IMG/VR virus record: IMGVR_UViG_3300031576_000036
Coordinates: 3,148 to 67,147 of that record
DNA: 64,000 nucleotides
Source of the DNA: a virus
Direction: 5' to 3' (one strand)
Of this stretch, positions 1,053 to 34,100 are shown in pieces. Under the pieces are notes generated by a model. The model worked only from the letters and a program-made list of their open reading frames with translations, did not search any database and had not been told where the DNA came from. A program made the translations under genes and the position numbers. How positions within the stretch are numbered: position 1 is the stretch's first letter; every line of letters starts with the position of its first letter.

Positions 1053-1101
1053 TATGAGGATTGACTATAATCGCAGCTAACCAAAAAACGGAGAACCAAC
1101 A

Positions 1102-3397: not shown

Positions 3398-3421
3398 CAA
3401 CAGAAAAGAGGATAAAAAGCT

Positions 3422-4162
3422 ATGGACGCAAAAACGGGAGCGGAACAAAATAATTTCACTGAACTGCTAATCCCCCAACCCATCAAATTGGAAATGGTCT
3501 ACATTCCCGGTGGCGAGTTCACGATGGGATCGCACGATTACGACGGGGAAAAACCACCGCATCGCGTGCGCGTCTCGCCTTTCGCCATCGGTAAATACCC
3601 GGTCACGCAGGCGCAGTGGAAGGCGGTAATGGGGGAAAATCCGAGCCGCTTCAAAGGCGACGACCTGCCGGTGGAAACTGTCTCGTGGGAAGACGCCGTG
3701 GAATTTTGCGAGCGGTTGTCACACGCGACTGGGCGCAAGTACCGTCTGCCCAGCGAAGCCGAGTGGGAGTACGCCTGCCGCGCGGGATCAACCACGAAGT
3801 ACGGCTTCGACGGCGATGAGAAACAATTGGGCGATTATGCGTGGTATTACGAAGACTCTGACTCCAAAACTCATCCGGTTGGGCAGAAAAAACCAAATGC
3901 TTGGGGCTTGTATGATATGCACGGCAATGTCTGGGAGTGGTGTGAGGATTGGTATGGTCATTACCCTAGCGCAGAGGCGACTGATCCTACGGGGTTCAGT
4001 AGTGGCTCGGGCCGCGTTTTTCGGGGCGGCGGTTGGAACAACGGCGCCGTCAGTTGCCGGTCGGCGTATCGCTACGGGGTCGCGCCCGGCAGTCGCGGCG
4101 GCAATCTCGGTTTCCGCCTTGTAGTTGCCAAAAGACAGTTTGAATTAGCAAACATAGCCTAA
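3422..4162 (+). CDS. FGE-sulfatase (formylglycine-generating enzyme family, CLec fold) domain protein, DGR-target-like
   Basis: IPGGEFTMGS, KYPVTQAQW, RLPSEAEWEYACRAG, PNAWGLYDMHGNVWEWC, RVFRGGGW...LGFRL are canonical FGE-family motifs. Confidence 0.92.
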   Translation: MDAKTGAEQNNFTELLIPQPIKLEMVYIPGGEFTMGSHDYDGEKPPHRVRVSPFAIGKYPVTQAQWKAVMGENPSRFKGDDLPVETVSWEDAVEFCERLSHATGRKYRLPSEAEWEYACRAGSTTKYGFDGDEKQLGDYAWYYEDSDSKTHPVGQKKPNAWGLYDMHGNVWEWCEDWYGHYPSAEATDPTGFSSGSGRVFRGGGWNNGAVSCRSAYRYGVAPGSRGGNLGFRLVVAKRQFELANIA

Positions 4163-4335
4163 CTTTGGCAAGACAAATCCATTGTGTATGATGATCGCCC
4201 GCGTGTTACAATGCCAGAACGCGACTTACAAAGCCATCCATTCTTCATAAAGGTGCCCGGATAGGCTTTCTCTCTATTGAGCGACACTCAACGATGTTTC
4301 CATAACCTTAGTAGCTATTCTGGAGCCTTCCGCAA

Positions 4336-5862
4336 ATGTATCCTTCCGCATCACCAACGGACATTTATGCGCCTATCACATCTATTCAAACGCTTCCTGA
4401 ACCGCTTCCTGAACCCAATTCTTGCAACAACGATCACTCTGAGCTTGGCGATGGTTTGCCTACTGAGCGGTCGGATAGCGTTGATGGGCATTACCCTGCT
4501 GTGGGGCTGCTGGTGGACGGGGATTATATTAGCGTTGGAAGTGGGGAGGATGATCTACAGCGGCGAGAGATTGAGCAAGCGAGCGCGGAGACAGTCGTAG
4601 CTGAGACAGTCGCAGTAGCAAAATCTCTTAGCCAGTTGCGCAAGTTCATTGACTCACATTTTCACGGCGCGGACTGGCAAGGGGTTGAGACTATCCTTGC
4701 GTTTTTGTGCGCCTACCGCCTTCACGAAACCGACCCGTTATGGCTGCACGTCATCGGGCCATCGGGGAGCGCCAAGACTAGCTTGGGAATTCAGTTGTTA
4801 GCGAGGGGGTTCGCGGATCACCATCCCATTGGGGATATAAGCGAGAATACTTTGTTGAGTGGGTACGCGAAGGGGCGTGAGGGAGGGAAGTTCAATTCGC
4901 TACTACATAGAGTGGGCGAAGAGGGATTGTTGTACTCGAAGGAGTTCACTGAGTTTCTAGCGAAGGACGAACGAGTCGTGCGCGCTGTAGCTGGGCAACT
5001 ACGTTCGGTCTACGACGGTGCGCTTCACAAAGAAACCGGCGCGAGCGCAAAGTCTCTATTTTGGTCTGGGAGGTTGTCAGTTATAACAGCCTTTACGCCA
5101 AGCGTAGAGTGGAAGTGGTTGCAGTACAACCGCGAGGGGGAGAGGTTTTTGATTTTGCGCTGGCGAGCTACAGCGGACAAACGCGCACTAACAAGAGCAG
5201 TCAGAAATCAAGAAGGTCGTCAGGGAGAGTTCCAAGCCGGACTTGAGGAGAGAGTGTTGGAGTTGATCAACGGCAATGACAAATACGGCGCGATAGTGGA
5301 AGCAGCAAGCCCCAGCGATGATGTTATGGACAAGCTTCGCGCTTACCATTTACCCCAGGTTGTAGCTTGGTTGCGTTCGATCCCGGTTAAATACGACGGG
5401 AGACAGGTAAGTCACGTTGCGAGTGAGGAATCGCCAACGAGGGTTATGCATCAATTGATAAAGGCAGCGCGAGGTAGTGCTATGTTGCATCGGAGGAAAC
5501 AATTCGGCGCGGAGGACTGGCGAATAGCTACGAGGCTCGCGCTGGATAGCATTCCTGAAACTAGAATGAGGTTGTTGAGAAGCATCTACCCTGATCCGAG
5601 TTATTCGACTGGGGTGGACAAGATTCGCATTATGTCGGGGTTCTTTAGCAATGATGCTATTCAAATGCACTTGGATGAGCTACAGGCGCTCAAGGTCATC
5701 AGGCGAACTCGGCATAGTAGTGATAATGATCTCGACGGGGGATACGCATATACAGAGGAGTTCGCGCGAACCGTAATAGATGGGTGTCCGGTGTTGTGGG
5801 AGCAGTTGCGCGGGGAGTGGGGGGAGAGGGAACAACTGGCAATAAGGGAGATGGAACAATGA
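4336..5862 (+). CDS. AAA+ ATPase, putative MCM-like replicative helicase
   Basis: Walker A-like IGPSGSAKT, LLYSKEF (Walker B-like), QLRSVYDG, ERF arginine-finger-like motif; located in replication arm. Confidence 0.65.
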   Translation: MYPSASPTDIYAPITSIQTLPEPLPEPNSCNNDHSELGDGLPTERSDSVDGHYPAVGLLVDGDYISVGSGEDDLQRREIEQASAETVVAETVAVAKSLSQLRKFIDSHFHGADWQGVETILAFLCAYRLHETDPLWLHVIGPSGSAKTSLGIQLLARGFADHHPIGDISENTLLSGYAKGREGGKFNSLLHRVGEEGLLYSKEFTEFLAKDERVVRAVAGQLRSVYDGALHKETGASAKSLFWSGRLSVITAFTPSVEWKWLQYNREGERFLILRWRATADKRALTRAVRNQEGRQGEFQAGLEERVLELINGNDKYGAIVEAASPSDDVMDKLRAYHLPQVVAWLRSIPVKYDGRQVSHVASEESPTRVMHQLIKAARGSAMLHRRKQFGAEDWRIATRLALDSIPETRMRLLRSIYPDPSYSTGVDKIRIMSGFFSNDAIQMHLDELQALKVIRRTRHSSDNDLDGGYAYTEEFARTVIDGCPVLWEQLRGEWGEREQLAIREMEQ

Positions 5863-6059
5863 AAATGGAAACAGTAACTTGTAAACGTTGTGGGGCTACC
5901 TGGCTTGCGTCTGCTACTAGCAAGCCAATTGCTTGTCCAAATAACAACTGCCGACTGCTTACCATTGCGCCGGTAGAATGGGAAGTGAAGTTGGCTTTGG
6001 GGAAGGCCGTTAAGTACAAAGGAACGCAAGTAAATATTAAAAAAGAAAATAAAGGTTGA
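5859..6059 (+). CDS. small zinc-ribbon protein
   Basis: CKRC...CPNNNC; ATGA overlap with upstream gene; GGGAG RBS. Confidence 0.6.
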   Translation: MKMETVTCKRCGATWLASATSKPIACPNNNCRLLTIAPVEWEVKLALGKAVKYKGTQVNIKKENKG

Positions 6060-6084
6060 CTCGCATCACTCTTCAGCGTACAAT
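6056..6084 (+). promoter_or_regulatory. strong sigma70-type promoter with A-rich UP-like element
   Basis: TTGACT (6056-6061), 17-nt spacer, TACAAT (6079-6084); A-tract immediately upstream. Confidence 0.8.
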
Positions 6085-6089
6085 GCGCT

Positions 6090-6545
6090 GCATTGAAGGA
6101 AGAGAAAAGCGCGAACAGAGCCAATTGTGGTAGTTGGCTCCATTGTGGGAGAGGGAGAGGGAGAGCGTGAGTGTAGTCAACTTGCTTGCGCTCTCCCTTC
6201 TGAAACGAAATCAGAACAGATATTTGAATTGAAACAGGTTCGTAGAAACGGCTTTCTTTGGGGAAGTCGCTTCCGGTAGCCCTTGGTATCAACGATAGCA
6301 ACCAATCGTCAAGGGCGACGACATTCGCATTCAAGTACAGCGAGTACGTTAGATGCGGGAGGGTTGCCGTCATCAGCTTCCAACTAAGCCCACTCCCTCC
6401 CTTCAACTTCCTCGGATAACAAACGGGAAAGCTGCTGCAACGATCCTGGTTGGTTCTCATAGATTGTCTTGGACTAGGATCACAAATGAAAGAAGCTTGC
6501 CCCTTTACAAACGAGGAAGCTGGGGGAGGGAGTGGGGTTGTTTGA
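6090..6545 (+). ncRNA. candidate structured ncRNA or long 5' leader
   Basis: about 460 nt with no credible ORF after a promoter; several stems, e.g. 6118-6126/6132-6140, 6158-6172/6184-6198, 6389-6414/6512-6536. Confidence 0.5.
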
Positions 6546-6551
6546 AATACT

Positions 6552-7007
6552 ATGGCTAGAGAAAAATCAACAAGGACAAGAAAACAAACCAGCCACGGGC
6601 ATTCCAAGTCCGTGCGCCGATTGAGCAGCGATGGAGTTGAGAGGTTACGCAACCCGCTGACGGATCACGATAGGTTGCTGGACACAGCGGACAGCGACTC
6701 GAAATTGGCAAAGCTGGTCTACCCTAGCGATACGAGCGCGCACGGGTTGTTGCGGATGGAGTTCGAGCAATTTCTGTCCACCTTGCGCCCCGCTCCCAGA
6801 AAACCGACGACGAAGGTGGTTTCAGCGTATATGCAAGGGGAGACGCTGAAGTTGTTGTTTGAGGCGAGAATGCGGTTGATTACTGAAGGGCGTTATCATC
6901 AAGATGATAGTTTGAGTGGGCTTCTCAAAGCGATTGTGCGAGAGGCGGATAGAAATGCGAGGAGTAACGAAAGGGGTAACAATGTCGAACCAACTACAAG
7001 TACTTAA
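6552..7007 (+). CDS. hypothetical protein, possibly DNA-binding
   Basis: basic ORF; C-terminal strand-helix-helix pattern (KVVSAYM...SLSGLLKAIVREA) loosely RHH-like. Confidence 0.55.
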   Translation: MAREKSTRTRKQTSHGHSKSVRRLSSDGVERLRNPLTDHDRLLDTADSDSKLAKLVYPSDTSAHGLLRMEFEQFLSTLRPAPRKPTTKVVSAYMQGETLKLLFEARMRLITEGRYHQDDSLSGLLKAIVREADRNARSNERGNNVEPTTST

Positions 7008-15371: not shown

Positions 15372-15768
15372 GAATAAAAGTGCCCCCAACATCCCTCCAC
15401 CCCCACTTAGGCCCCACTCAGGGTGGAAAAAGGAAAACACTTTTATGCCCACACCTGAGCAACTCAGAAAGCTCGCTGATGCGCAAGCTAAACTCCGCGA
15501 AGCCGAGAAGCGACGACGGCTGGACAAAATAATAGCCACGCTCGAACGAAACCAAGCTGTCCGAGCAGCGGCGATGAACAACCAATCTATAACTAAAAAG
15601 GAGTAACCAGGATGCCAAGAGGAACCAAGTCACAAAAACGTCGGGAACAACAACGCAGAGAGCAGCCCAAGTGCGCGAACGGCTGCGGACGAACTGTAAG
15701 CAGCGAGAGACAGGTGTGCGGGACTTGCGCGAGTAAACCGCCGAAGAAATAACTTGAAGGAAGCGACA

Positions 15769-18700
15769 ATGGCAATCACTCAACAACCGAAATCCTGTGA
15801 AGGCTGTGCGCTTTCGGGTATCTCCAAAGGCTTTATGTCCCCAGAAGGGAAAGGCTCCCTAGGAGTCTTGCTCGTCGGGGAAGCAGCTGGAGAGCACGAG
15901 ATGAGAGATTCACTTCCATTCAGGCCGCAAGCCCAAGCGGGAAGTGTACTAGAGAGAGCTATCAAGCGAATGGGATTGTCCCGCGAACAATTCGTGATCT
16001 CAAATGTCATAAATTGCAGGCCCAAAGACAATAAACTCGAAGGAGAATGGTATGAACAAGCAGCAATTGAACACTGTAAACGAAACCTTGGGGGTGTTGT
16101 TGAACGATTTGCGCCGCGCGCAATCGTCGCTCTTGGAAATATCCCGCTCCGTGCCCTTACCGGAACCGCCGGTCCGGGCAGAACTGTTACTGCTCTACGA
16201 GGATATTGCCTTCCTGCAACAACGTATACAGCAACGGAAGGGAAACCTATTCCAGTTATCCCAACCTACCATCCCTCCTTCATCTCCCGTGGAAACGAAC
16301 ATCTCTTAGGGGTGTTAATGCACGACTTGGGGAAGGCGATCAAGGTTGCGAGCGGGAAGCTCGTGGAAGGAAGCCACTTCCTTTACGATCCCTTGGGTGA
16401 CGACAGTGACAAGCTCAAATATTACTACCCAGTCCCAAGCGAAAAGGTAGACGAGCTTCTGGAAGCCGCTTCCGACCCAAACGCCCTCATTGCCTACGAC
16501 ATCGAAACTGCCTTCACTGGCAAGGGCAAAGGTGAGGACGAATACGAGATGATCGAGGGCGATGAGATCGTCCAAATTCAATTCTCCCTTCGTCCTGGCG
16601 AGGCTTGCATATTTCCCTGGTCAGATGCAGTTAGAGAACTAAGCAGAAAGATTCTGGGAGGTTGCGCAAGAAAAGTTTCCCAAAATGGCTGGCGCTTCGA
16701 CCAAGTTAAACTACGAGCAGAGGGAGTAAGGGTTGCGGGGGAGGACATAGATGTAATGACTGCCTTCCATCATTTGCAGCCTGATCTCCCTGCGGACTTA
16801 CAGTTCATTGCTTCGATGTTTGGCTTCCCTTTTCCTTGGAAGCATTTGGGAACAAAGGACTTAACCTATGCGGGCGCAGATGTGGACGCCTTACAGCGAA
16901 TAATGCAGAAGCTTCCTGAAGATATGCGCAAGCGGGGGGTTTGGGATAGCTACGTCGAGATGGTCTTGGGGCTACAGCCTATCTTGGAAGGAATGCAAAC
17001 CCGTGGCATCCGACTTGACCTCGAAGCGAGAGAGCAGTTTCGAGTGGAGATCGAAGAGCAAAAGAAAGTCGTCAACACTCAATTGCAAGCGGAAGTCCCG
17101 GAGGTAGTGAAACCTAGAAAGGTTTACAAAGACTGGCCTGATGAGTGCAAGGAGTACCTCTCCGCTGTTAAGGAGGCTAACATTATCATCGGCAAAAAGG
17201 GCGGGAAGCGGCTTCCGGTCGTGACAATGGGCGTGGCTACCGCCGACCATCACATCGCGCTTACCATTGAACAGCGAAGAGACCTGGTTGAACAGCTAGG
17301 TAAGCAGTGGCGCTACGACAACGGCTCTTTACATCGGGTTGACTTGTTTCTGCCGAACTCAACCGCGCACTTAAAGAAACTAATCGTTCACTTTGGCGAA
17401 AAGGTTCCCAAGAATTTAGATGATGACGACACCACCGCGCGTCCAGAGTTAGAGAAGCTGATCGAGAAGCTTCACAAAGAAGCGGACAAGCTCAAAGCAA
17501 AGAAGCGCCCCACAGACGACGATCTCGTAAAGATAGAACAAAAGCTCTCGCTGGTGAAGTTGATAGAACAGAGCATCGAATACCGACAACTGAACAAAAT
17601 CGGCTCGACTTACATAGAAGGTTGGCAACCAGACTCCAATGGGCTAGTTCATACAACCTACACCTTCTCTCCCGCTTCGTGGCAACTGGCTGCCATCCGC
17701 CCAAACGTTATGAATGCGCCTGTGCATAGTGAGCTTGCTAAGAAATTCAAAAAGCTTCAAGTAGCATCTTCAGGTTGTACATTGATCGCCGCTGACTACT
17801 CTGCCTGCCACTTGAAGACCCTCGCGTTCGAGGCTGAAGACATCTCCTATTATCGGATGGCCTGCATTGACGGGCACTCTACCGTAGCGGCGTTGATGCT
17901 CAAGTTGGTAAGCCCTGAAAAACTTTTCTCTATGGAAGACGGGGAACTACGTGATTACTTCAAGTGGTTAAAGTCCGATAAAGACCGACTCCGGGTTCGC
18001 AACAAACAAGCAAAACCCTGCATTGCCGAAGGGGAACTTGTGCTAACCCAACGAGGTCTGGTCCCAATCCAAGCCGTCTCGATTGACGACCGACTTTGGG
18101 ATGGAGTAGAATGGGTTTCCCACGGCGGGGTTGTATGTCTTGGAGAGAAGGAGATTATTGAATATGACGGACTCAAAGCTACGCCAGATCACGAAGTCTA
18201 CACCGCCTGCAAGCGGAAGGTATCGCTCAGGGAAGCAGCATCGGGATCACTTAGGCTCGAAAGATCAGGAGATGATTGGAAAGCGATTCGGACAGATGGT
18301 TGTTATATCAGCGACGATCAAACGGGTGCCAAGGGGCGGCAGCAATCGGCGCGAGAGACTATTGCATCACTGCCAATGTCAGGTTTGTGGCGCGAAGGCT
18401 TGGATAGATCGTTGTTGGCTAAGAACCATCAAGGAGAAGGGTTGCAGGAAGTGCGCAGACTTGGCAAATCAGATTCCTCACTCCAAGAAAATTGGTCGGC
18501 GTTACGACGCCATAGTAGCTCGTTGTTACAATCCGACCAATCCAGCTTTTCATCGCTACGGTGGGCGGGGGATCAAATGCAACTTCAACTCACGAGAGCA
18601 CTTCACCAGATGGATAGTGGAGAACCTGCCGCACGAGAACTACAACGGAGTGGAAATAGATCGAATAGACAACGACGGGCATTACGAGCCTGGGAACTTG

Positions 18701-19563
18701 CGGCTGGCTTCGAGGTCGCAGCAAATGCGAAACAAGTCGGACAATGTATGGATGAGCTTCTACGGCGAGCAAGTGTTAATGATAGAGTTCCCCAGTCCAT
18801 TTACGGAAAGTTGGACGAGACGGTTGGTGCGCGATTGGGGAATGACTGGCGAGCAGATAATAGAACAGGCGAAGGCTGCGGCGAAAAAGGGCACGAAGAA
18901 TTGGCGAGGGCGACAGGATCGTTTAATAAAGTTCGGGTATATGACATCCTTAATTCGGGACCCAGACACCGGTTCACTGTTAGCGGCAAGCTAGTGTCTA
19001 ATTGTTTGCTTGGAATACAACTCGGCCTCGGCGCTAGAAAGCTGTTCGACCTCAATCGTGGCAGCTTCGACAATCAAAAAGAAGCTCAGGATGTTATTGA
19101 TTTGATCAAGCGTATCTACCCGAACATTCCTAAGTGGCAACAACATATTAAGGACCTCGCGCACCGGCAAGGGTTCTTGGCGCACAGGTATGGCGGAATC
19201 CGGTGGTTCTGGAATGTGCAGCGGTGGGACGCTAAGAATGGACGGATGACTGCGGGAGATGATGCAGAGAGGGCGCTGGCATATCCGGTTCAGGGAGATG
19301 CTTTTGGGAAGATGAGAGAGGCTATGTTGGACTTGGAGATTGAAGGATTAGCGGAGAAGTACAGACTTAATAATAACTTGCACGATGCGCTGTACTTCGA
19401 CTGTCCTAACGAATACTTGGAGGAAGCCATTTCCAAGATCAAGGAAATTATGGAGCGCCCAGCGAGGAAGCTAGTGAATAAGACGTTTCCAGACGGGTTA
19501 GTAATTGGGGTAGAGATTAACGTGGGGCCGAATCTTGGAGAGTTGAAGGAGGTCAAACTATGA
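15769..19563 (+). CDS. polA: DNA polymerase family A with N-terminal family-4 uracil-DNA glycosylase domain and 3'-5' exonuclease; intein-containing
   Basis: UDG: CEGC, VGEAAG, NVINCRP, TYHPS; Exo I AYDIET, Exo II QNGWRFD, Exo III YAGAD; motif A AADYS, motif B split by the intein, motif C LHDAL. Confidence 0.93.
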   Translation: MAITQQPKSCEGCALSGISKGFMSPEGKGSLGVLLVGEAAGEHEMRDSLPFRPQAQAGSVLERAIKRMGLSREQFVISNVINCRPKDNKLEGEWYEQAAIEHCKRNLGGVVERFAPRAIVALGNIPLRALTGTAGPGRTVTALRGYCLPATTYTATEGKPIPVIPTYHPSFISRGNEHLLGVLMHDLGKAIKVASGKLVEGSHFLYDPLGDDSDKLKYYYPVPSEKVDELLEAASDPNALIAYDIETAFTGKGKGEDEYEMIEGDEIVQIQFSLRPGEACIFPWSDAVRELSRKILGGCARKVSQNGWRFDQVKLRAEGVRVAGEDIDVMTAFHHLQPDLPADLQFIASMFGFPFPWKHLGTKDLTYAGADVDALQRIMQKLPEDMRKRGVWDSYVEMVLGLQPILEGMQTRGIRLDLEAREQFRVEIEEQKKVVNTQLQAEVPEVVKPRKVYKDWPDECKEYLSAVKEANIIIGKKGGKRLPVVTMGVATADHHIALTIEQRRDLVEQLGKQWRYDNGSLHRVDLFLPNSTAHLKKLIVHFGEKVPKNLDDDDTTARPELEKLIEKLHKEADKLKAKKRPTDDDLVKIEQKLSLVKLIEQSIEYRQLNKIGSTYIEGWQPDSNGLVHTTYTFSPASWQLAAIRPNVMNAPVHSELAKKFKKLQVASSGCTLIAADYSACHLKTLAFEAEDISYYRMACIDGHSTVAALMLKLVSPEKLFSMEDGELRDYFKWLKSDKDRLRVRNKQAKPCIAEGELVLTQRGLVPIQAVSIDDRLWDGVEWVSHGGVVCLGEKEIIEYDGLKATPDHEVYTACKRKVSLREAASGSLRLERSGDDWKAIRTDGCYISDDQTGAKGRQQSARETIASLPMSGLWREGLDRSLLAKNHQGEGLQEVRRLGKSDSSLQENWSALRRHSSSLLQSDQSSFSSLRWAGDQMQLQLTRALHQMDSGEPAARELQRSGNRSNRQRRALRAWELAAGFEVAANAKQVGQCMDELLRRASVNDRVPQSIYGKLDETVGARLGNDWRADNRTGEGCGEKGHEELARATGSFNKVRVYDILNSGPRHRFTVSGKLVSNCLLGIQLGLGARKLFDLNRGSFDNQKEAQDVIDLIKRIYPNIPKWQQHIKDLAHRQGFLAHRYGGIRWFWNVQRWDAKNGRMTAGDDAERALAYPVQGDAFGKMREAMLDLEIEGLAEKYRLNNNLHDALYFDCPNEYLEEAISKIKEIMERPARKLVNKTFPDGLVIGVEINVGPNLGELKEVKL
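18019..19002 (+). mobile_element. intein (328 aa) inserted in PolA motif B
   Basis: block A CIAEGELVLT, block B ATPDHEV, block F VRVYDIL...HRF, C-terminal VSN then +1 Cys; removal restores QAKP/CLLGIQLG. Confidence 0.9.
18164..18994 (+). CDS. HNH endonuclease nested in the +1 frame within the intein
   Basis: AAGGAG RBS at 18148-18153; GKRFGQMVVI, CQCQVCG, GCRKC, RCYNPTNPAFHRYGGRGI, IDRIDNDGHYEPGNLRLASRSQQMRN; start codon could be further downstream. Confidence 0.85.
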   Translation: MTDSKLRQITKSTPPASGRYRSGKQHRDHLGSKDQEMIGKRFGQMVVISATIKRVPRGGSNRRERLLHHCQCQVCGAKAWIDRCWLRTIKEKGCRKCADLANQIPHSKKIGRRYDAIVARCYNPTNPAFHRYGGRGIKCNFNSREHFTRWIVENLPHENYNGVEIDRIDNDGHYEPGNLRLASRSQQMRNKSDNVWMSFYGEQVLMIEFPSPFTESWTRRLVRDWGMTGEQIIEQAKAAAKKGTKNWRGRQDRLIKFGYMTSLIRDPDTGSLLAAS

Positions 19564-20615: not shown

Positions 20616-23600
20616 TCAAGGCTTTACGGTTGCCGATGGCGCAAGTTGTTTTGCTTCTTCCTCAAGCGACGGCTTGCCTTGTCGTTTGCGTTTGCGGTTT
20701 TCGACGTTGCGCTCTTCGCGGGTGAACTCTCGCAGAATCTCCGCCTTGAGCAGCGCGTCTGGAAACTCCGCCATTGCCGCTTCGCGCACGTCCGGGTAGT
20801 ACGCAGGGAAGATAACGTCTATGAGGATTTGTCGGCGATCCTCAGCAGTTTTGGAAGTGAAATTGCTGTCAGCAGCGAGAGCGTCTACAACTCCCGGCAT
20901 AAATTTGCCGAGTTCTCTCGCTATCACCCGGTCAACTCGCGGGTCGCCAACCTTCGGTACAACGTCATTCCAGCGAACGCCGAGGGTTTCCATTTCCTTT
21001 TCGAGATAGTTGCGCTCTTCAACGAAGGGGATTCCGGTTAGTTGGCGAACGAGAGGCATTGACCGGGAGGGGGCCTGAGTGCGCGTGGGGACTTCTTTTT
21101 CCGGGAGGGATTGTTTCCAATAAGGAACTCTATTCTGTAGTTGGTTGCGGAAGCCGCTTCCAAACCCCTCTCCCTCCAAGTCTCGCTGTTTGTGCTCCTC
21201 CACGCTCCAAAACAACGCTAGGTCGGAAACTTGCTTCAAGGGAGTTAGGAATCCCGCTGTGATCGCGCCGAGGTACTGCCCGGCGAGCTTATCAGACTTA
21301 GCTTCTTTCTCAGCATTGCCAATCCCCGCAATGGCATTCGTCACTATGTCCGCTTGCTGTTCCATCCCACGCAAGCCGAAACCGAACGCCTCTGCTCCCT
21401 CACGCGCGGTCAATGCTCCAAGTCCGCGTTTGTTTCTCTCCAATAAGTCCGCAACGTAGAATGCTGGGGCGAACGGAGTAAAGCGAACGTCCAGGTTTTT
21501 CCCTCCGACTTTAACTTCGTTCCACTTTTCTCCAGCGGAGAACGGTGCGACTTTCGAGAGAGGCTTACCGAGGAGCTTGCGAGGATACTTTGCAAATCGG
21601 GACTCCTCATCCTCAGTCATCTGCGAGCCTTGTTGCTCGTAGAAGCTGTGGCGCATCTGGGACGCCAGGCCGAAGATCGCGGTTCCCATCAGCGACTTCC
21701 AAAATACCCCCATATCCCCCTTAGCGACGTTCGCTCTTTCCTTTGCCGACATCAACGAGAGAACGCCTAGGGGAGAGTATTCATACTGAAATCGGAGGAA
21801 GTTGTTGATGAGGAAGTTCGGAAAGGGAATGACTCCGAGCTTGAACGCGGCTCCCACCTTGCCTTTGAGAACTTTGTTGACGAGATCGCCCTTGCTTCCC
21901 TTTTCAGGTCTGCGACCAAACGTGATGCGAAGGGCTTCATCAGCAGCGCGAGTCACAATCTCCACAGGGAGTTCCGCTGCTCTACCTTCTTTGATCAACC
22001 CCCCTAAATCTATGCCTCCCTCCATAGCATAACGTCGTAACTTAGCCTCAAAGATCGCCCTACGGGAAATTTGCTCTTGCGCTCGGTTCGCCCAAGTTAG
22101 CGTGTGAACGACATTTTCGGCCTGGATGAAGCCCTTGGTGACGAGGGATTGTGAGCGGTCATATCTCGCTTGGGCTTTGGTGATGGCGTCTAGTAGCTTT
22201 TGCTTTTTCGGAGCGTCGTTGGGCATCGCGCTGGCTTCCGACTTCCAACGAGAGAGAAGTTGCGGAGTGGTTTCCCCAACGGCAGCGGGGGATTCCAGGT
22301 CCGCATTGAGAATCTGGAAAAGCTTATAGTCAACTTCTTCCGGGAAAGCCTTTGCCATTTGGTCTACGAGGTTGGAAACCTTGCCGACGTTTTGCTTGTA
22401 GTTGCTGGAACGGAGAGAGTTAATAGCTTCCCCAAAGAGGTTTATGAAAGGACGGATGGCAAGCGTGGGAGAGAGGGCGTTGCGGTTGTCAAAGCGTTTT
22501 GCGCCGAGAATATTTTGAACGGCGGAGTCGAATAGCTGTCCGAGGGAGTCCATCCCCGTGACGATCCCAGTCGCTAAGAGATTTCGTTGCGCAGTTTCAA
22601 AAGCCGACACCAAGAGTCCCTGGTAAACGGTTGAAAGCCTGTCCCAATTGCTGCGCTCGCGGAACATTCCGTTGAGTTCGGTTAGGGAGGGGAGTTGCTC
22701 GGAAATGGCTTCCGCGAGTCGAGGATTCACCTTAGCGAGATCGTTCACCATTCGGCGGATGTGGGAGAGGTAAGCGAGTTCCGCAGCAGAGGTAGAAACG
22801 TCTTGACGGAGCTTGTCTAGGAACTGAGTAGCGTCTATTCCCTCACGCTCGAAAATTTCGTTGAATTGAGAGAGCGGAATTCGTTTCTCCTTGGCCATCC
22901 GCACCAATTGGGTAATTACGAGTTCGTTCGGATCGAGTTCGTAGCCCTCAGCGGCAACCGCGTCTTTCGCTGCTTTAAAGAACTGCTTAGCGACGCCTTT
23001 GGCGTTGGTGATTTCTTCCAGATAGGGAACGTCAGGATCAACCCTGTACGAAAGGTCTAGAGTCTGCAACCGCTGGCGCGCGGGGATTGCTTCTTGGCGT
23101 TTGCGTTCAGCGACAGCTTCGGCTTCGGCGAGCTTGAATTGCCTGCGCGCGTGTTGGGATTCTTCGAGGGTTTGCTTGCGGCTCTCCCGAACCGCGTTGA
23201 TTCGCGCGTCAAGCTCAGCTAGGCGCTCTGGGTTGAGGTAGCCGGATTCCTTACGCAGGTCTTCAAGTCTGCGTAACTCTTTGCGAGTTTCCGTTCGGGC
23301 TTGTTTGGAGAGGTCGTATGCGCGGGCGGTGGTTTCTAAGGACGCAGAAGTTTCGTTCGCGGAAGTCGCTTCCCTCACGCTCTCATCTATGACATCACGG
23401 GCTTGTTGCTGCGCTTCGGGCGTGGGAGCGCCGCGCTTGAACCCCTTGAACAACTGCTTCCACATCTGGGGGTCGAATATGGGGTTGGCAAACAACTTCT
23501 GCCCTTCGTAGCGCACTGATGCTCGGAGCTTCGGAGGGAGGTCGAGGTAGTGTACTTCCGCTTCGCCATAGGCTGCTCCCCTTGATTCGTCACTTAATAT

Positions 23601-26384
23601 CAAGGACTCTCTTGCGGCTTCCGCATCCCCACGCCTTGAATATGGGCCATATTCTTCCCCGTCAATTCCCGCCGAATCTTGCACTACATAGTCCGTCGTG
23701 CCGTCAGTGCGAGCCACTTCTATAATTCTGTAGTTCGGAGTTGGCGGACGCTCACCAGCGTTGATAGTCGTCCTACCGTAAGTCCCTCCGAATTTCTTCG
23801 CCACCCCCCTGGCGAACTGCGGCAACTTCTCATCGTAGAGAAGCTTGTGAATTTGTCCGCCGATGGAGAGGTCGTTTCCTGTTATTGTCCCAGTAGGAAA
23901 GAATCCATCCCCCTTCCAATCTCTTGCGCCTGTTGTAATCTGCTCAGCGATTCTTGGCCCTACAACCTCAGATAAGCGTTCGAGGGTTAGGTCTTGGAGT
24001 TCGTTGAGGGTTTGGGCGTTCCCGTCTTTGATTACTGTAAGATCGAAGGAGCCATTGTCATTTTGCGCCCAATCTATAGAATCAACATTCTGCCTCAGCG
24101 CATCTTCATAAAGGTCAATCTGTTGCTTCCCAGTGGGCCACACGATCCGACTGTACCCATTGTCGCTCGCCCAGCGGAGCATCCGTTTGAAGGCGAGTTC
24201 GTGCCAATTGGATTTGAAGGGGGCGTTGGGAATACTAGCTGCGCGCAATCGCTGTTGTTCGTCAGTTAGGGCATCCAGCCTCGTATCAAGTTCGATTATC
24301 TGTTCAGGAGTTAAATCGTCCCACCGAAGCGCACGTTGGTTGCGAATGTCTCGCTTTCGCTGGGCGAGCGCCTCCAACTGCGCATCTGCATCCGCAGGTT
24401 TATAGCCCTTCTCCCTCCCCTGCTGCATCCAATCTGATTGAATCTCCTGCAACCGTAACACTTTATTCCCTTGCGCGTCTTTGCCTTCGTCAAAGCGAAC
24501 GTGGGCGAGGATGTTGGGTTCGGAGAAGTGGCTAGAGCTAAACTGTGCATCCTGCGCTGCCCTATTACTAGCCATCCTCGTGGCTTCAGCGCGATCCGCC
24601 GCACTCAGTACTTCGTAGGGCCTGCCAAATGCTCTATCGGCAACCTTATCAAGTGTCTGTATGGAGAGTTCTTGAAAAGGCTTCAGTGGAAGCGTCAACA
24701 ACAACTCCCGATACGTCCCCGGCTCCCCGCCTTGCAACGCTTTCCAGGATTCAAACTTCGTCTGCGACGTTCGCTGCGCAAACGTCTGCCCACTTTCCAA
24801 GTGCATAAGCTCGGTGCCAAGCTCGTGCAGTTCAAACTCAGCGTCATTAAGCGCAGCTTTAGCCGCAATTGCGTTTTCTTGCGACCCAAACTCAAGCGCA
24901 TACCGTGCGCGCTCGCGCAAGATGTCCACATCTCGACGTTGGGAATCGAGAGCTACAGTCAAGTCTGCAATTCTCTTTGTAGTCTTTGGATCGTTGGTTG
25001 GTTGGCCAAGAACCTTCTCTTCCACTCTCACTTGGTTATCCCGGATCGTCTGCAACAACTCGTCGCGTCTTACTGTCTTCCCGCGAATGGCTTTCATCGC
25101 TAGCAACTCGGCCAACCCAGACCATTCGTATTCCTCTGCCTTAATCCCGTACTTAGGATCGCGCAACATTCCCATTGCTTGGTCCGCAGTTAGCTTCTTG
25201 GGGAACTTTTGGGTTACAACTTGCTCAAGCGCCGAATAATACCAGTTGACCGGATCACGACTTACCTCGTCTATCGGCAGGGGGATGCCGGAGAACAGTC
25301 CTGCTTGCTCACCAAATACAATTGCTGTGCGCTTGTCAGGAAGCTCCCCCCAAGAGAACGAACCCTTGGGAAAGAGTCCTTCCGGAATCAGCGGACGGTT
25401 CGCCTCTGTCCCAGTGGGCATAACCATATCCAAAGCGGCGTTAGCCAGCGAGGATTTTATGACGTTCTCAGGCGTGAGCGGTCGCCCTTCGAGAGGAGCG
25501 TCCACCATCTCTTGCCCAGCGCCGCCGAGGGCCTGCATCCCTACCCTCGCTGGTCCCATCGGCATTTGGTTCAGTCGCTTGAACAGACGCCCTTCTACTG
25601 CTCCTACGAGTCCACGAGTTGCGAGTTCCTTGGGGTCAGTGATCCCCTCAGCGCGAGCGGTGGCCATCTTTTGAAACGCGAACGCCATCGTTGGAGACTT
25701 GAATAGCATCATCGGCGCGAGTTGGCCAGGGAGCGCGGCGGCGAATTCGGAAGTGGCTTCCAACGGCGAAACCGAGAGAGGGTTAAGGTGCATCTGCGCG
25801 GACGACAACGCGCTTGCCTCTTCTCGTGATCTTCCGATAAGCCAATCTCCGAGCTTATTCAACACCGACTGTTCCCGCTGCCACGTTTGCGCTCCTCTGA
25901 TCAAATCTCCATCCGCCTCTAACATCGAAAGAAATTGAACTTCGCTTTTATCAAACGATCTCCCTATGTCATCAAGTAGGTAAGCCGCGCCTGCTAGTGT
26001 TCTGCCCAGCGCCGCCGCTCCGGCCTGCTGGCCACGCTCGATTGCTCCGAGAATGCCGGAGTCCTCGCCTGCGATGGCTTTTTCCATCACCCCGATTTCC
26101 GCTGGGGTTTGGGGACGCATAACAGCCGCCACGTCCGCTATGGTTCTGGGCCTGAGTTGGCGTTGGGTAATCACGTCTCCAGGGGTCAACGTGTGCCCCA
26201 TTGCGCCTGTGCGCGTTTGTAACAATGGTCGCACGGGAGGGGTAAGAAATTGTTGTCGCCGCCCAAGTCCTGTTTCAATAGCAGTTGTAACACTTGGGGG
26301 GAGGGGGGTTCCGGTCGGAGGCGCAACGACGTACTTAGCGGGATCAAAAGGTCTGGCTGGACGTTTGCGTTTTTGCGGCGGCAT
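20616..26384 (-). CDS. large internal virion/ejection protein (polyvalent-type)
   Basis: 1922 aa, mostly helical, last gene of the morphogenesis arm; contains SHFSEPNILAHVRF...LQEIQSDWMQQGR module. Confidence 0.7.
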   Translation of the reverse strand: MPPQKRKRPARPFDPAKYVVAPPTGTPLPPSVTTAIETGLGRRQQFLTPPVRPLLQTRTGAMGHTLTPGDVITQRQLRPRTIADVAAVMRPQTPAEIGVMEKAIAGEDSGILGAIERGQQAGAAALGRTLAGAAYLLDDIGRSFDKSEVQFLSMLEADGDLIRGAQTWQREQSVLNKLGDWLIGRSREEASALSSAQMHLNPLSVSPLEATSEFAAALPGQLAPMMLFKSPTMAFAFQKMATARAEGITDPKELATRGLVGAVEGRLFKRLNQMPMGPARVGMQALGGAGQEMVDAPLEGRPLTPENVIKSSLANAALDMVMPTGTEANRPLIPEGLFPKGSFSWGELPDKRTAIVFGEQAGLFSGIPLPIDEVSRDPVNWYYSALEQVVTQKFPKKLTADQAMGMLRDPKYGIKAEEYEWSGLAELLAMKAIRGKTVRRDELLQTIRDNQVRVEEKVLGQPTNDPKTTKRIADLTVALDSQRRDVDILRERARYALEFGSQENAIAAKAALNDAEFELHELGTELMHLESGQTFAQRTSQTKFESWKALQGGEPGTYRELLLTLPLKPFQELSIQTLDKVADRAFGRPYEVLSAADRAEATRMASNRAAQDAQFSSSHFSEPNILAHVRFDEGKDAQGNKVLRLQEIQSDWMQQGREKGYKPADADAQLEALAQRKRDIRNQRALRWDDLTPEQIIELDTRLDALTDEQQRLRAASIPNAPFKSNWHELAFKRMLRWASDNGYSRIVWPTGKQQIDLYEDALRQNVDSIDWAQNDNGSFDLTVIKDGNAQTLNELQDLTLERLSEVVGPRIAEQITTGARDWKGDGFFPTGTITGNDLSIGGQIHKLLYDEKLPQFARGVAKKFGGTYGRTTINAGERPPTPNYRIIEVARTDGTTDYVVQDSAGIDGEEYGPYSRRGDAEAARESLILSDESRGAAYGEAEVHYLDLPPKLRASVRYEGQKLFANPIFDPQMWKQLFKGFKRGAPTPEAQQQARDVIDESVREATSANETSASLETTARAYDLSKQARTETRKELRRLEDLRKESGYLNPERLAELDARINAVRESRKQTLEESQHARRQFKLAEAEAVAERKRQEAIPARQRLQTLDLSYRVDPDVPYLEEITNAKGVAKQFFKAAKDAVAAEGYELDPNELVITQLVRMAKEKRIPLSQFNEIFEREGIDATQFLDKLRQDVSTSAAELAYLSHIRRMVNDLAKVNPRLAEAISEQLPSLTELNGMFRERSNWDRLSTVYQGLLVSAFETAQRNLLATGIVTGMDSLGQLFDSAVQNILGAKRFDNRNALSPTLAIRPFINLFGEAINSLRSSNYKQNVGKVSNLVDQMAKAFPEEVDYKLFQILNADLESPAAVGETTPQLLSRWKSEASAMPNDAPKKQKLLDAITKAQARYDRSQSLVTKGFIQAENVVHTLTWANRAQEQISRRAIFEAKLRRYAMEGGIDLGGLIKEGRAAELPVEIVTRAADEALRITFGRRPEKGSKGDLVNKVLKGKVGAAFKLGVIPFPNFLINNFLRFQYEYSPLGVLSLMSAKERANVAKGDMGVFWKSLMGTAIFGLASQMRHSFYEQQGSQMTEDEESRFAKYPRKLLGKPLSKVAPFSAGEKWNEVKVGGKNLDVRFTPFAPAFYVADLLERNKRGLGALTAREGAEAFGFGLRGMEQQADIVTNAIAGIGNAEKEAKSDKLAGQYLGAITAGFLTPLKQVSDLALFWSVEEHKQRDLEGEGFGSGFRNQLQNRVPYWKQSLPEKEVPTRTQAPSRSMPLVRQLTGIPFVEERNYLEKEMETLGVRWNDVVPKVGDPRVDRVIARELGKFMPGVVDALAADSNFTSKTAEDRRQILIDVIFPAYYPDVREAAMAEFPDALLKAEILREFTREERNVENRKRKRQGKPSLEEEAKQLAPSATVKP

Positions 26385-30629: not shown

Positions 30630-31172
30630 ATGAGCAAGTCAAAGTATAGCACCAACATAGACAATTCAAAAGAGATTTGGAAGCCGATTCCGGGATTCGA
30701 GGGCCTATATGATGCATCTACGCAAGGTCGTGTGCGCCGTTCTATAACGTGGCAAAATCACAGAGGCTCCCCCAGTCGTCCAGGATTGATCCTAAAAATC
30801 TCGGCGAACAAGTTAGGATATTGCCGTGTTCCCCTGTCCAAAGCTGGCAGAAAGCGCGCATACAGCGTTCATAGAATCGTCGCTGCAACTTTCTTGGGGG
30901 AATCATTGGATAGCCCCTTGACGGTGAACCACCTAGATGGAAATAAAAAGAACAACTCGGTTATCAACCTGGAATGGTGTACGGCCAAGGCCAACTGTAT
31001 CCACTCTTGGTTTAATGGGCGGGCCAAAAAGCTGACTATCAATGATGTTAAACGTGTGCGTTACTTGCATACGTTGGGTTTCAAATGTGTTGCGCTAGCG
31101 GCTATGTTCAAAATATCTGGTGGGCAAATGTCCAGGGTATTGCGAGGGCAAGCCCATAAACACATTAGATAG
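30630..31172 (+). CDS. NUMOD4-HNH homing endonuclease, antisense to the structural operon
   Basis: EIWKPIPGFEGLYDASTQGRVR (NUMOD4), VHRIVA, VNHLDGNKKNNSVINLEWCT; C-terminal HTH. Confidence 0.9.
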   Translation: MSKSKYSTNIDNSKEIWKPIPGFEGLYDASTQGRVRRSITWQNHRGSPSRPGLILKISANKLGYCRVPLSKAGRKRAYSVHRIVAATFLGESLDSPLTVNHLDGNKKNNSVINLEWCTAKANCIHSWFNGRAKKLTINDVKRVRYLHTLGFKCVALAAMFKISGGQMSRVLRGQAHKHIR

Positions 31173-34100
31173 TCGCGCCGATACGTCTACTGTCCCCTCC
31201 AAATGGCTTGACGGCAATCATCTCACTGGTTCGTCCCCAAGGCGCGGAGATCACACACGAGTCCTTTTGAAACAATCTAAATCCTTCCACAGACGTAAGC
31301 TGATGTTCAAAGATTTTTCCCTTCAAAGCTCGCAATGGAAGGTAATACTTGCGCATCTCCCCACCGGACTGCGGGATGAAGTAGGTTGAGATAGCGCCGT
31401 CGCAGAGAATGTTGTAGACGACTTCGGCAGTGGAAGCGACGGTAATGTAGGCTTCGCGGAGAATCTGCCAGCCGCAAACATCGTGTGTCGTAGCTTGGGT
31501 TTTCCACACTTTGACGAGTTCCGGCGCAGGTTCGTGTACGAAAGTAACGTTGAATATCCGCCAGTCCACAAAGTCATCCACTGGTCGCAGGCGGAAGCTG
31601 CTTCCTATCACGGGGGTTTCGAGCGCATACGACTTCACGGATTGCCCGTCGTGGTTGATGAATAGCGATTGAATAACCCCTTGGTCGCCGCTCTCCAACT
31701 GTATCTCACGTTGGACTCCTTCGGTGTCAGCTTCGATTATGACGCCTTGGAGGAACTTGGCCCCCATATCCCCAGAGAGTTCCCAATCGGTCGCTCTCAA
31801 GAATGTAAGCTCAGGCTTAGGAATCCACGAGGGTTGCCACTCGTACAACTCAAGTCGCGCACCGTTCGTTCCAGGGTGGATGATGTCAATGCCGATGTTG
31901 ACCGCGAACAGTTCGTCCCCCTCCACGAGGTCTATAATCTGTATGCCCCTGCCAATGGAGAAAACCGAGTTCGCCACGACAAGGTTGGTGTAGTTGTCTT
32001 TATAGATGTTTACGTTCGCCGCTACCGTTCCCGTGGCGAGGTCAAACATTTGATCCCCGAAGCGTTTCTGGGATCGTGGGTCGTTGGCGTCAAAGGCAAG
32101 CGTAAGTATGCGAGCTTGAATGGGATCAAGGTTGTCCATCGCGCCGCCGTAAGAGACGAACGATCCAAAGCCCGTGAACCCAACGGTGCCGAAGAGGATT
32201 TTATAGCGTGTTGGGCCTTTGTCGGAGTAAACAACTCGCACCCCACCGTCGGAGTAAACGTCGTAATACCACCGACGCTTAGCTTTGTCCCAAACAAGCA
32301 TATTCCATTGATTGCTGCTGTCTTGATAAACAAAGCGAAGGTACTGTCCGTCCGAGTCAAGCATCATCGAGTTGGGCTTGGTGTAGGCAGGCGAGGGCAA
32401 GCCGCCTGCGAGCGACGTGGGAGTTCCTTCTTGACCGTCGTGAGGGAAGAGAGGGAAAAGGGTATCATCTGTAATAGATCGTGGTTGTCCGCCCTCGGAC
32501 TCGTAAATCCCATCCTTACCGATGAAGTAGATAAGGGTGTCCACGGTGATCCCTCGGCGTGTCCAAGCTCCCTTGCCGTTGGCGACTTCCTGGGAGATGA
32601 ACTGCGGCTGACCCGGTTGGGCGGAGAAGTTCTGCGAAATCAAGTACATCTTCTCCGTTGTCCACACGTAGGGCCGTCCGTCGTAGATACAACCGCCGAT
32701 GAGAGGTTGTGATGGGGAAGCGACTTCCAGGTAGTTCAAGTCTGAGCAACTGTTAGGGTCGTTCCCATTGGACCAGTAGAGCACGCCGGGGTTGAGTGAG
32801 TCACCAAGGAAGAAGTAGAACAACCCGAACTGCCCTTGGCCATAAGGTCCAAACACCGTTGGCAGAGGTTGCCCCATCACAATCGGGTTCGGCATCTCCC
32901 ACACCGCGCCAGTCGCCGTCCCCGCCGATTGCGTGAGTTCCGTGACTGTTGTGCTCTCAGGCATCGCATACGTCAAGTAAGCTTTGCCGTTTATTATAAT
33001 CTCGTTACCCGGAGAGTCGTTCGTGGTAAACGCGCTTCCACCAGTAATAGTCACTCGTGTGCCTACGACGTTGCACGTTCCACTTCTGGGGATACCGGCT
33101 GTGGGCACGGGAGGAAAGCGGTCAAACGTGAGCAAGGGATTGTTGGCGATGCTTCCGTCCGTGAGGTTGTCTACGAAACTGGGAGAGCCGGTGTTGTCTA
33201 CGGTTGCGAGATAAATCCATTGGAGCAGCGTGCCTCCGTAACGGTAGATGTCGAGCTTGTCCACTTGAGGGTCTGGGTGCAAGGGACAGGTGATAGTACG
33301 TTGTTGCCGACGACCGACTACGCCTGCGCGCGTCGGTGGCGACGGTAATCCCATCTCTCCAGTTGAGGAATTTCGTCCGACTGTGCGGTAGTAGTAAGCA
33401 TTTCCCAGCACATCGTAGTCAATTTCGGCGTCCGGGCCATACGTGCCTCCGATCCACACCGACGAGAAGCGGATGGTAGTGGTGTCAGAGACGTTGAAGT
33501 TGATCATAAAGGATGTGCAGTCCTTCAAGGAGCGAGACTGGTCAGTTCCGACGCGGATGAGATCGCCGACCTTGATCCGCAACTGATACCACTGCTCCTG
33601 CCCCGATCCCACTTGGAACTCTCCGCTATCCCGAACGGGAGCAGTGAATAGTCCCCCTCCCTGGCCAGTGTTGCCGTCTTGCTCCGCGAGCCTATTCAAT
33701 ATTTGTTGCCGGACTCGCGTTGGAAGGATGCCTCTGGGTTGAAATTGCTCGATCTGCTGCCTGGATGATCGTTCGTTGAAGCGATCTAACTGCGAAGACT
33801 GGACGTTCTGAAAGCTCGCTTGGAGTTGCGTTGTGGTGTTAGTGGAGACAGCATAGCGTTGCAAATCAGCGGTACGAAATGGATAGAAGTAATAATTCCG
33901 TGATAAATCCGTGGCCGCATACGTCGTGGTAGTGTTAGGGTCTACATCGAAGAATATTCTTCCTTCGATAAGCTTGGTTATGTCGGAGAGATAGACGCCT
34001 ACGCAGATTTCGTCGTCATCTGTGATCGGGCGCGAACCAGCCGCCGACAAATCTCGTGCAATGTTGTGGCGAATGTTTCCAATTCCAGCGGGAGTAATAA

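Follow-up and report, generated by a model that had tools for sequence, protein, structure and literature searches.

A phage DNA polymerase intein with an HNH-like endonuclease candidate encoded in the +1 reading frame

Introduction

Inteins whose endonuclease is encoded out of frame with the splicing domain are already in print, in the work of Gorbalenya (1998, "Non-canonical inteins", as cited by later authors), Gosselin et al. (2025) and Phillips et al. (2026). The present study concerns such an intein within the gene for the DNA polymerase of the virus record IMGVR_UViG_3300031576_000036. A stretch of 64,000 nucleotides, hereafter the window, was analyzed; it takes in nearly the entire record, which is complete, measures 67,147 bp and has direct terminal repeats. 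Positions are given as window coordinates, and all window features lie on the plus strand unless stated otherwise. Within the polymerase gene an intein of 328 amino acids was found, and the same DNA, read in the +1 frame, encodes an HNH-like product. The arrangement had been pointed out in an earlier note made from the sequence alone, which overrated its novelty, since inteins with out-of-frame endonucleases had been described before.

Gosselin, Arsenault and Gogarten (bioRxiv 10.1101/2025.01.02.630785) reported actinophage inteins in which the endonuclease occupies a separate frame or the opposite strand, and proposed an invasion model. These inteins resemble the window in their same-strand, out-of-frame endonuclease between the splicing blocks, in a structureless in-frame middle, in the proposed origin by invasion of a free-standing endonuclease gene and in phage replication or packaging genes as hosts. 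The out-of-frame case presented there is EndoVII-like and lies in "frame 3", with HNH endonucleases found in frame only, whereas the product encoded in the window is HNH_3-like, carries Arg in place of His and uses a different frame. In contrast to that case, the nested gene of the window also overlaps both lobes of the Hint domain (by about 35 and 25 codons) and has a Shine-Dalgarno (SD) sequence and an ATG inside the N-terminal lobe (Hint-N).

In the cyanobacterial dnaX gene, Phillips, DeSimone and Gogarten (bioRxiv 10.64898/2026.09.14.751524) described an intein whose LAGLIDADG endonuclease is encoded out of frame; they used a like argument from dN/dS ratios and credit Gorbalenya (1998). 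The dnaX intein shares with the window an overlapping open reading frame (ORF), SD-like motifs, a low dN/dS in the endonuclease frame and a raised one in the extein frame, a disordered in-frame segment, a sporadic distribution and intein-free alleles. Unlike the phage PolA of the window, its host is the cellular dnaX gene, and the LAGLIDADG endonuclease lies in a +2 ORF.

Two further systems are related in part. The ShiLan domain (Arsenault et al. 2025, PMC11855218) is an out-of-frame HNH hidden in an insertion of a phage DNA methylase. The earlier note was right in its mention of alternate-frame HNH genes in phage insertions. As in the window, the HNH gene is concealed in a second frame while the insert remains open in that of the host; unlike the window, the element has no splicing domain and the insert is thought to be retained in the protein. 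No ribosome-binding site was detected there and leaderless initiation at GTG was proposed, whereas the window combines a genuine Hint domain with an SD and an ATG that are conserved. In the fractured genes of Dassa et al. (2009, PMC2677866), split inteins flank a free-standing endonuclease gene. These match the window in the free-standing type of endonuclease gene at the endonuclease position of the intein and in short overlaps with the intein coding ends; there the host is broken into two ORFs whose products are trans-spliced, while in the window it is one uninterrupted ORF.

No paper describing a family of motif-B PolA inteins with a +1 HNH gene was found in the literature search, which did not extend to the supplementary cluster tables of Gosselin et al. 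The window holds a new, divergent case, a 328-aa intein at position Lys+2 of motif B in a UDG-PolA fusion (UDG, uracil-DNA glycosylase), with Ser in place of the penultimate His. It goes slightly beyond the published cases in the conserved start signals within the Hint N-lobe and in the occurrence of related units at neighboring motif-B positions and in another gene.

Results

The interrupted polymerase gene

The polymerase ORF occupies positions 15754–19563 and comprises 1269 aa when counted from TTG. The database copy P0001, with 1264 aa, agrees with ATG 15769, which is the likely start. Pfam searches of the ORF identified a UDG domain (7.1e-19) and DNA_pol_A (2.9e-27). The closest homologues in the protein collection were P0002 (952 aa) and P0003 (941 aa), with identities to the window polymerase of 60% and 53% in the searched N-extein region, and of 61% and 56% in the full alignment. 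Both lack exactly 328 residues, corresponding to C756–N1083 of the window ORF.

On the basis of Pfam and of this alignment, the N-extein (15754–18018) consists of the UDG domain fused to a family-A DNA polymerase and extends as far as the Lys-Pro of motif B. The C-extein (19003–19563) opens with the codon TGT (19003–19005) for the +1 Cys and runs through what is left of motif B (CLLGIQLGLG) to the C-terminus of the polymerase, the register of motif B having been set against bacterial Pol I homologues. This Cys was found in the intein-bearing allele only, the residue at the corresponding place being Ala or Ser in the intein-less P0002 and P0003. Alignment to bacterial Pol I homologues placed the insertion point in motif B (the O-helix), two residues past the invariant Lys. 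As the closest polymerases, at 60% and 53% identity, are without the intein, horizontal acquisition is suggested. Searching the phage collection by blastn with the polymerase gene gave no matches.

Two other arrangements were considered for the insert. A group I intron carrying a homing endonuclease gene was ruled out, as no intron was matched by Rfam between 17000 and 20000 at E ≤ 0.1 and the host frame is uninterrupted. A fractured gene with a split intein was ruled out by the single host ORF of 1269 aa.

The insert (18019–19002) is a class-1 intein, with a predicted Hint fold at its two ends only. Its splicing blocks comprise C1 (CIAEGELVLT), T55-P-D-H58 (TPDH), VYDILNSGPRHRF and VSN followed by the +1 Cys, and its C-terminal end reads VYDILNSGPRHRFTVSGKLVSN, with KLVSN directly before that Cys. 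The residues C1, T55, H58, Y308, D309, R318 and N328 were invariant among 46 aligned inteins. Since an essential motif B is interrupted and the splicing residues are conserved, the intein would be expected to splice.

The AlphaFold model, built on the 46 aligned relatives, divided the intein into three parts. The Hint N-lobe (residues 1–84, 18019–18270), which contains blocks A and B with TPDH, is supported by model confidence, by invariant residues and by the wobble position in relatives; means of pLDDT over blocks of ten residues were 86–95 for residues 1–80. The Hint C-lobe (18898–19002), with blocks F and G, is placed by the same kinds of evidence and by beta strands at 303–327, with block means of 88 and 81 for residues 301–320 and a pLDDT of 63 for the last eight residues. 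Between the lobes lies a frame-0 linker of about 209 residues (85–293, 18271–18897), where pLDDT was below 50 throughout and no match to Pfam, PHROG or NCBIfam was obtained.

When the intein model was compared with about 48,000 solved chains by VIA-align, the top 32 matches were all inteins or Hint domains, with Z scores from 15.2 to 7.5; the first match past these had a Z of 4.2. The best ones were gp41-1 (Z 15.2, rmsd 2.3, 116 aligned residues), NpuDnaB (14.9) and Mtu RecA (14.8). A profile search of the PDB with the intein gave weak matches only, to the Neq polymerase split-intein fragment NEQ068 (E 0.25) and to a bacterial intein-like domain (0.96).

The nested reading frame and its product

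The +1 frame is open from TTG 18131 or ATG 18164 until TAG 18992–18994. Counted from the ATG, the nested ORF (18164–18994, stop included) encodes 276 aa, and both frames are open over 831 nt. About 35 codons on its N side and 25 on its C side overlap the Hint lobes, and its stop codon falls on the Leu-Val codons of the intein C-terminal KLVSN. A paralogue search found a single copy of the nested ORF in the phage genome.

The nested product, a candidate homing endonuclease of the HNH-like (beta-beta-alpha-metal) type, matched seven PHROG families, five of which are named HNH endonuclease. Among the latter were phrog_374 (1.2e-27), phrog_3377 (1.1e-23), phrog_2081 (1.5e-12) and phrog_4578 (5.6e-05). 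A sequence-profile search of the PDB with the HNH alignment gave no matches at E ≤ 1. The nearest clusters in the ESM Atlas were unnamed viral proteins; clusters with I-HmuI_NUMOD-like, NUMOD1 or AP2 domains scored 0.86–0.91 and are leads only.

The AlphaFold model of the nested protein had a mean pLDDT of 71.8, with the core residues 110–190 mostly above 80 and block means of 83–95 for residues 161–190. Its predicted architecture consists of a disordered N-terminal stretch of 30 residues, a beta-rich domain with four Cys residues, a beta-beta-alpha unit and a helical C-terminal domain. With strands modeled at 45–82, the four Cys residues (C72, C75, C94 and C97; 18368–18454) probably form a zinc ribbon inside the beta-rich N-terminal domain. 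The beta-beta-alpha core (VEIDRIDNDGHYEPGNLRLASRSQQMRN; 18650–18733) contains D166, R167, N178 and N190 and was modeled as strands 163–167 and 179–183 followed by helix 184–190.

In 41 aligned HNH homologues, the window included, the four Cys residues, E164, D166, R167, Y174, N178 and N190 were invariant. N178 and N190 fill the positions of the structural Asn and of the distal Asn/His metal ligand. Position 167 is presumably that of the general-base His of HNH enzymes, as judged from the HNH_3 consensus.

Most of what the earlier note had read from the letters was borne out at this level. The polymerase intein of 328 aa at 18019–19002 stood up as an exact insertion relative to P0002 and P0003 with its blocks and Hint fold. 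The in-frame middle, said to lack an endonuclease motif, remained without one in searches run on both frames. The position of the +1 ORF, the AAGGAG 10 nt upstream of it, its stop within block G and the dual-coding length of about 830 nt were all reproduced. The HNH motifs, which had been called clear, hold as far as membership in PHROG HNH families is concerned; the canonical first His is, on the other hand, an Arg (IDRID).

Occurrence of the arrangement in other loci

When phage records were searched by tblastn with the +1 product, the best matches fell within genes annotated as DNA polymerase in Streptococcus phage Javan113 (MK448670) and in Gardnerella phage vB_Gva_AB1 (MW387018). In both phages an HNH ORF (31–36% identity) lies in the +1 frame of the polymerase coding sequence (CDS), within a homologous intein (CIAEGELVLT...LVHN, then Cys) and with the SD-ATG placement of the window, and the in-frame middle of the intein is K/R/S/Q-rich and unconserved. 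The polymerase and the nested ORF are located at 883–3780 and 2405–3178 in Javan113 (locus L001) and at 865–3768 and 2393–3196 in vB_Gva_AB1 (L002). Unlike the window, these Gram-positive prophages have inteins of 309 aa at position Lys+6 of motif B, in a PolA lineage without the UDG fusion. Public annotation lists the genes only as "DNA polymerase (I)" and marks no intein and no nested HNH ORF.

A related case is annotated in Hamiltonella phage APSE-1 (NC_000935.1), where the CDS P46, named "HNH endonuclease", lies in the +1 frame inside the polymerase CDS P45 (31808-29554=2254, which leaves a remainder of 1 when divided by 3). As locus L120, P45 is at 3828–6809 and P46 at 4133–4555 on the minus strand. 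P45 likewise has an intein (CLAKGTLV...IVHN, then Cys), and the core of P46 is 32% identical to the HNH core of the window (E 5e-12). In contrast to the window, P46 comprises only 140 aa and has no four-Cys N-terminal domain, and the intein is situated near the polymerase C-terminus, not in motif B.

In total, 120 loci were assembled, consisting of the window, L001, L002 and 117 loci from scans of viral contigs and species-representative genomes. The full layout, an intact intein in one long polymerase ORF with the HNH gene in +1, was recognized automatically in 107 of them and on inspection in L013, L066 and L102, giving 110/120, finished chromosomes and isolated phages among them. Of the ten others, L038, L053, L093, L116 and L118 ran into a contig end, L021, L023 and L039 were truncated or rearranged, L072 had a frameshift in Hint-N and L059 was free-standing. 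From the 107 loci, 84 distinct nucleotide sequences were obtained, of which 74 were exactly 309 aa long and aligned with zero gaps.

In some loci the nuclease has decayed without loss of the open polymerase frame, through nonsense codons (L104, L070) or through deletions that left inteins of 261–263 aa with a truncated HNH (L051, L054–L057, L114).

Two loci were irregular. L039:2425-3741 holds a truncated intein remnant in which unrelated sequence stands in place of Hint-N and the N-terminal part of the polymerase; the HNH frame, open over 439 aa, is fused to an upstream unrelated ORF. In L072 (Eubacterium plexicaudatum ASF492), a frameshift in the Hint N-lobe at about 2880–2900 leads the N-terminal part of the polymerase into the HNH frame until a stop, after which frame 0 resumes; either the prophage polymerase is disrupted or the assembly contains an error.

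A metagenome scan reported 442 relatives, of which the best 80 loci were analyzed. Among these 80, the HNH gene was nested in +1 in a long ORF in 34, mostly with CIAEG-type N-ends and C-ends of the form (H/S)N followed by Cys. For seven, a host ORF in the alternative frame was flagged, and 39 had no covering host ORF, being free-standing genes or short contigs. Nesting in the other frame (host in HNH+1) was clear in the PolA loci L155–157 and L200 (hosts of 611–1010 aa), while L174, L181 and L182 are short contigs; the HNH family therefore overlaps its host in two registers. Longer relatives in which the HNH is fused in frame were absent at E ≤ 1e-5 among 2180 candidates, which is weak evidence.

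The hosts among the metagenome loci included PolA, UDG-PolA fusions like that of the window (L125, L132) and an SF2 helicase (L145). In the last of these (L145:1641-4346; Pfam ResIII 3.3e-27, Helicase_C 8.1e-12), a like intein (CIAEGQRV...LVSN, then Cys) with a nested +1 HNH ORF sits directly after the motif VI-like GRGLR, which would mean a change of host gene.

The insertion sites within motif B differed as well. By alignment, the intein is at Lys+2 in the window and at Lys+6 in the Gram-positive prophage family; by eye, it was placed at Lys+2 in L125 and L126, at Lys+3 in L132 and at Lys+7 in L133. The distribution of the window intein type is sporadic, with no representative in P0002 and P0003 and homologous units in other PolA lineages and in the SF2 helicase of L145.

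Constraint in the two frames

When the codons of the window +1 ORF were shuffled synonymously, a mean of 14.75 stops arose in the polymerase frame, compared with none in the actual sequence, and zero was reached in 0/20000 shuffles. The third frame, taken as a control, contained 23 stops against 23.7 expected. Comparable results were obtained for the 84 representatives, with 0 polymerase-frame stops against a mean of 11.5 expected (largest zero-fraction 0.057) and 17.06 stops against 16.57 in the third-frame control.

The avoidance of stops could be followed to single codons. A wobble T in the HNH frame was never found before AA/AG/GA codons, either in the window (0/79, vs 55/214 elsewhere) or in the other 83 sequences (0/6296, vs 3765/15176 elsewhere). 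Each polymerase-frame stop corresponds to NNT + AA/AG/GA in the nuclease frame, so that a wobble change that is silent for the nuclease suffices to remove it, which makes the +1 overlap the easiest to evolve. This would explain why the +1 overlap is the commonest.

In the 74 gap-free relatives, the most variable codon position was frame-0 position 3 in codons 1–64 and 289–309 of the intein, and frame-0 position 1, that is, HNH position 3, in codons 65–288. The wobble thus switches frame at codons 65 and 289. Diversity was lowered at codons 65–96 and 289–304, where both coding regions matter.

Ratios of dN/dS were determined by the NG86 method for 51 of 2701 pairs, with 75–95% nucleotide identity. 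In frame 0, the ratio was 0.09 for Hint-N and 1.57 for the middle region, while for the middle region the HNH frame gave 0.08 and the +2 control frame 1.33, a value like that of frame 0. In this family, the HNH frame is under purifying selection and the in-frame middle appears unconstrained save for the avoidance of stops. The frame-0 linker, read together with the polymerase, appears to be selected for stop avoidance only.

Start signals of the nested gene

The SD-like sequence AAGGAG (18148–18153) lies inside Hint N-lobe codons (K-E), 10 nt before ATG 18164. This ATG, at intein codon 49, was kept in 72/74 gap-free relatives. Upstream of the conserved ATG, an SD match of at least 5 nt was present in 68/75 sequences, compared with 8% of control positions. 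The Tyr codon that lends AT to the +1 ATG was TAT in 72/74 sequences, whereas other nearby Tyr codons were divided into 21 TAT and 16 TAC. A second conserved ATG, at codon 86 (73/74 sequences), had no SD in 75/75. Taken together, the conserved SD and ATG and the biased Tyr codon point to independent initiation of the nuclease gene.

A sigma-70-like site (TTGACG, 18 nt, TAGAAT; 10/12) was noted at 18083–18112, about 50 nt 5' of the nested ATG and within Hint-N codons. The promoter scan found this one site against 1.6 expected from shuffles and so gave no evidence of a promoter.

Other features of the window

No second intein was seen on reading the terminase gene (56130–58322, minus strand). 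The structural arm contains three very large ORFs on the minus strand, at 20616–26384 (1922 aa), 31165–35160 (1331 aa) and 39568–45222 (1884 aa); a PHROG scan of the 1331-aa and 1884-aa ORFs gave no match at 1e-5.

Discussion

The results are best accounted for by a two-gene mobile unit, in which an intein and an out-of-frame gene for an HNH-like nuclease share one stretch of DNA; a probability of about 0.88 is assigned to this reading. The polymerase mRNA would be read straight through in frame 0, giving a precursor whose small Hint domain is broken up by about 209 unstructured filler residues. This domain would then excise itself together with the filler and rejoin motif B (the O-helix) of the polymerase. 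Separately, ribosomes may start at the internal SD and ATG (18148/18164) within the Hint N-lobe codons and translate the +1 frame into the 276-aa HNH-like endonuclease. By analogy with other homing endonucleases, the latter would cut or nick, close to motif B, polymerase alleles that have no intein, and the whole intein-nuclease unit would be copied in during repair.

Several points weigh against this reading. Splicing, internal initiation, nuclease activity and homing are all inferred. With regard to the intein, Pfam and NCBIfam intein models matched neither the window nor any of the 46 relatives, and the penultimate residue (18997–18999) is Ser. His is usual at this position, though active inteins without it exist; Ser is also found in L133, L144, L145 and L149, while L125 ends in ISN and the prophage family in HN, each followed by Cys. 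With regard to the nuclease, Pfam HNH_3 matched the window in no case and only 7/41 relatives (best E 0.0033), and NCBIfam gave nothing for the nested product. The best HNH structure match, PacI, was modest (Z 5.5, rmsd 4.0, 84 aligned residues; below the level that the tool calls "clear"), and Foldseek of the HNH model against the PDB returned nothing at E ≤ 0.001. Moreover, Arg167 (IDRID) occupies the place of the general-base His in 41/41 homologues, and an Arg is present in APSE-1 P46 too, so that nuclease activity is not to be assumed. The selection tests also have their limits. The pairs used for dN/dS are not phylogenetically independent, and the tests cover relatives 33–40% identical to the HNH of the window, that is, the family and not the window copy itself. 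Nearer kin are only L126 (54% over 133 residues, on a 1.2-kb contig) and L122–125 (41%).

It could be argued that the window simply contains an ordinary intein with an in-frame HNH domain, displaced by two compensating frameshift errors of assembly. The HNH homology does start near the end of the Hint-N homology and stop just before block F, as that of an in-frame domain would. Such errors would, however, leave unexplained why frame 0 is open over 294 codons where 14.75 stops are expected, and the out-of-frame layout recurs in 110/120 independent loci, finished chromosomes and isolated phages included. Two DNA runs and no RNA run were listed as holding the window sequence, the two being from one cave-metagenome sample that is probably its source; a contig of this probable source run, with a word depth of 205, was identical over 17800–19200 with zero indels, although it is not independent of the assembly. 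The conserved layout, the selection tests and the identical contig together dispose of compensating sequencing errors, whose probability is practically negligible. Programmed frameshifting raises a similar question at the level of translation. A +1 shift after the Hint N-lobe and a return before block F would produce a conventional in-frame HNH intein, with the straight-through product as a by-product, and the wobble pattern indeed changes frame at codons 65 and 289, where the shifts would be needed. A minor frameshifted product is possible. Selection nevertheless maintains an open frame 0 over its full length, for which there would be no need if ribosomes left it, and the conserved SD and ATG with the biased Tyr codon mark independent initiation; to our knowledge, two efficient shifts within one essential gene are without precedent. 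This explanation is therefore considered very improbable.

A different objection is that the +1 ORF of the window phage is a decaying relic, with the intein persisting as a de facto mini-intein and the nuclease either not produced any more or inactive. Decay is real in the family, as seen in the nonsense codons of L104 and L070 and in the deletions of L051, L054–L057 and L114 with frame 0 intact; the catalytic His is absent, and the window copy has no close relatives, the nearest being at 54% (L126) and 41% (L122–125). Against this, the window ORF is of full length (276 aa) and retains the SD, the ATG and every column invariant in the 41 aligned sequences, itself among them, and the Arg in place of His is invariant family-wide under purifying selection, not a local lesion. 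A relic is accordingly held to be improbable, and the two-gene mobile unit is retained as the preferred reading.

The family as a whole shows the pattern expected of a homing element, given the decay of the nuclease with an open polymerase frame and the intein-less homologues. Free-standing HNH relatives (L059), the approximately 39/80 loci without a covering ORF among the best 80 of 442, some of them on short contigs, and, more weakly, the lack of a fused form fit the invasion of a mini-intein by a free-standing gene. It is thus supported, as far as sequence comparison allows, that the element may have arisen in this way. The same origin had been put forward in the earlier note, and the free-standing relatives and intein-less homologues agree with it. 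Its proposal that the nuclease is expressed independently agrees with the conserved ATG (72/74) and SD (68/75 vs 8% in controls), and the comparison of dN/dS per frame that it called for gave 0.08 for the HNH frame and 1.57 for frame 0 in the middle region.

With Arg in place of the general-base His, the product could be an atypical nickase, or a targeting protein that acts away from the insertion point. That intein and nuclease form a pair able to hop between sites, and not an accident frozen in place, is a tentative idea and, on present evidence, unlikely; it draws on the several motif-B positions of homologous inteins and on the unit in the SF2 helicase of L145. If it were true and the protein acted at a distance, the intein could colonize new sites and new genes, and the overlap with both Hint lobes would tie the survival of the nuclease gene to the essential polymerase.

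The locus establishes no new principle; its value is that of a well-supported example and a tractable system. Gene callers overlook the nested gene, and annotators list one long polymerase without an intein, as in Javan113 and vB_Gva_AB1. With 110 loci, and 34 more among the best 80 metagenome loci (442 relatives reported), a large and mostly unannotated family joins the short list of inteins with a separate, overlapping endonuclease gene. Its free-standing relatives, two nesting frames, conserved starts and a codon-level reason for the +1 frame provide unusually clean evidence for the view that splicing comes first and the endonuclease invades later.

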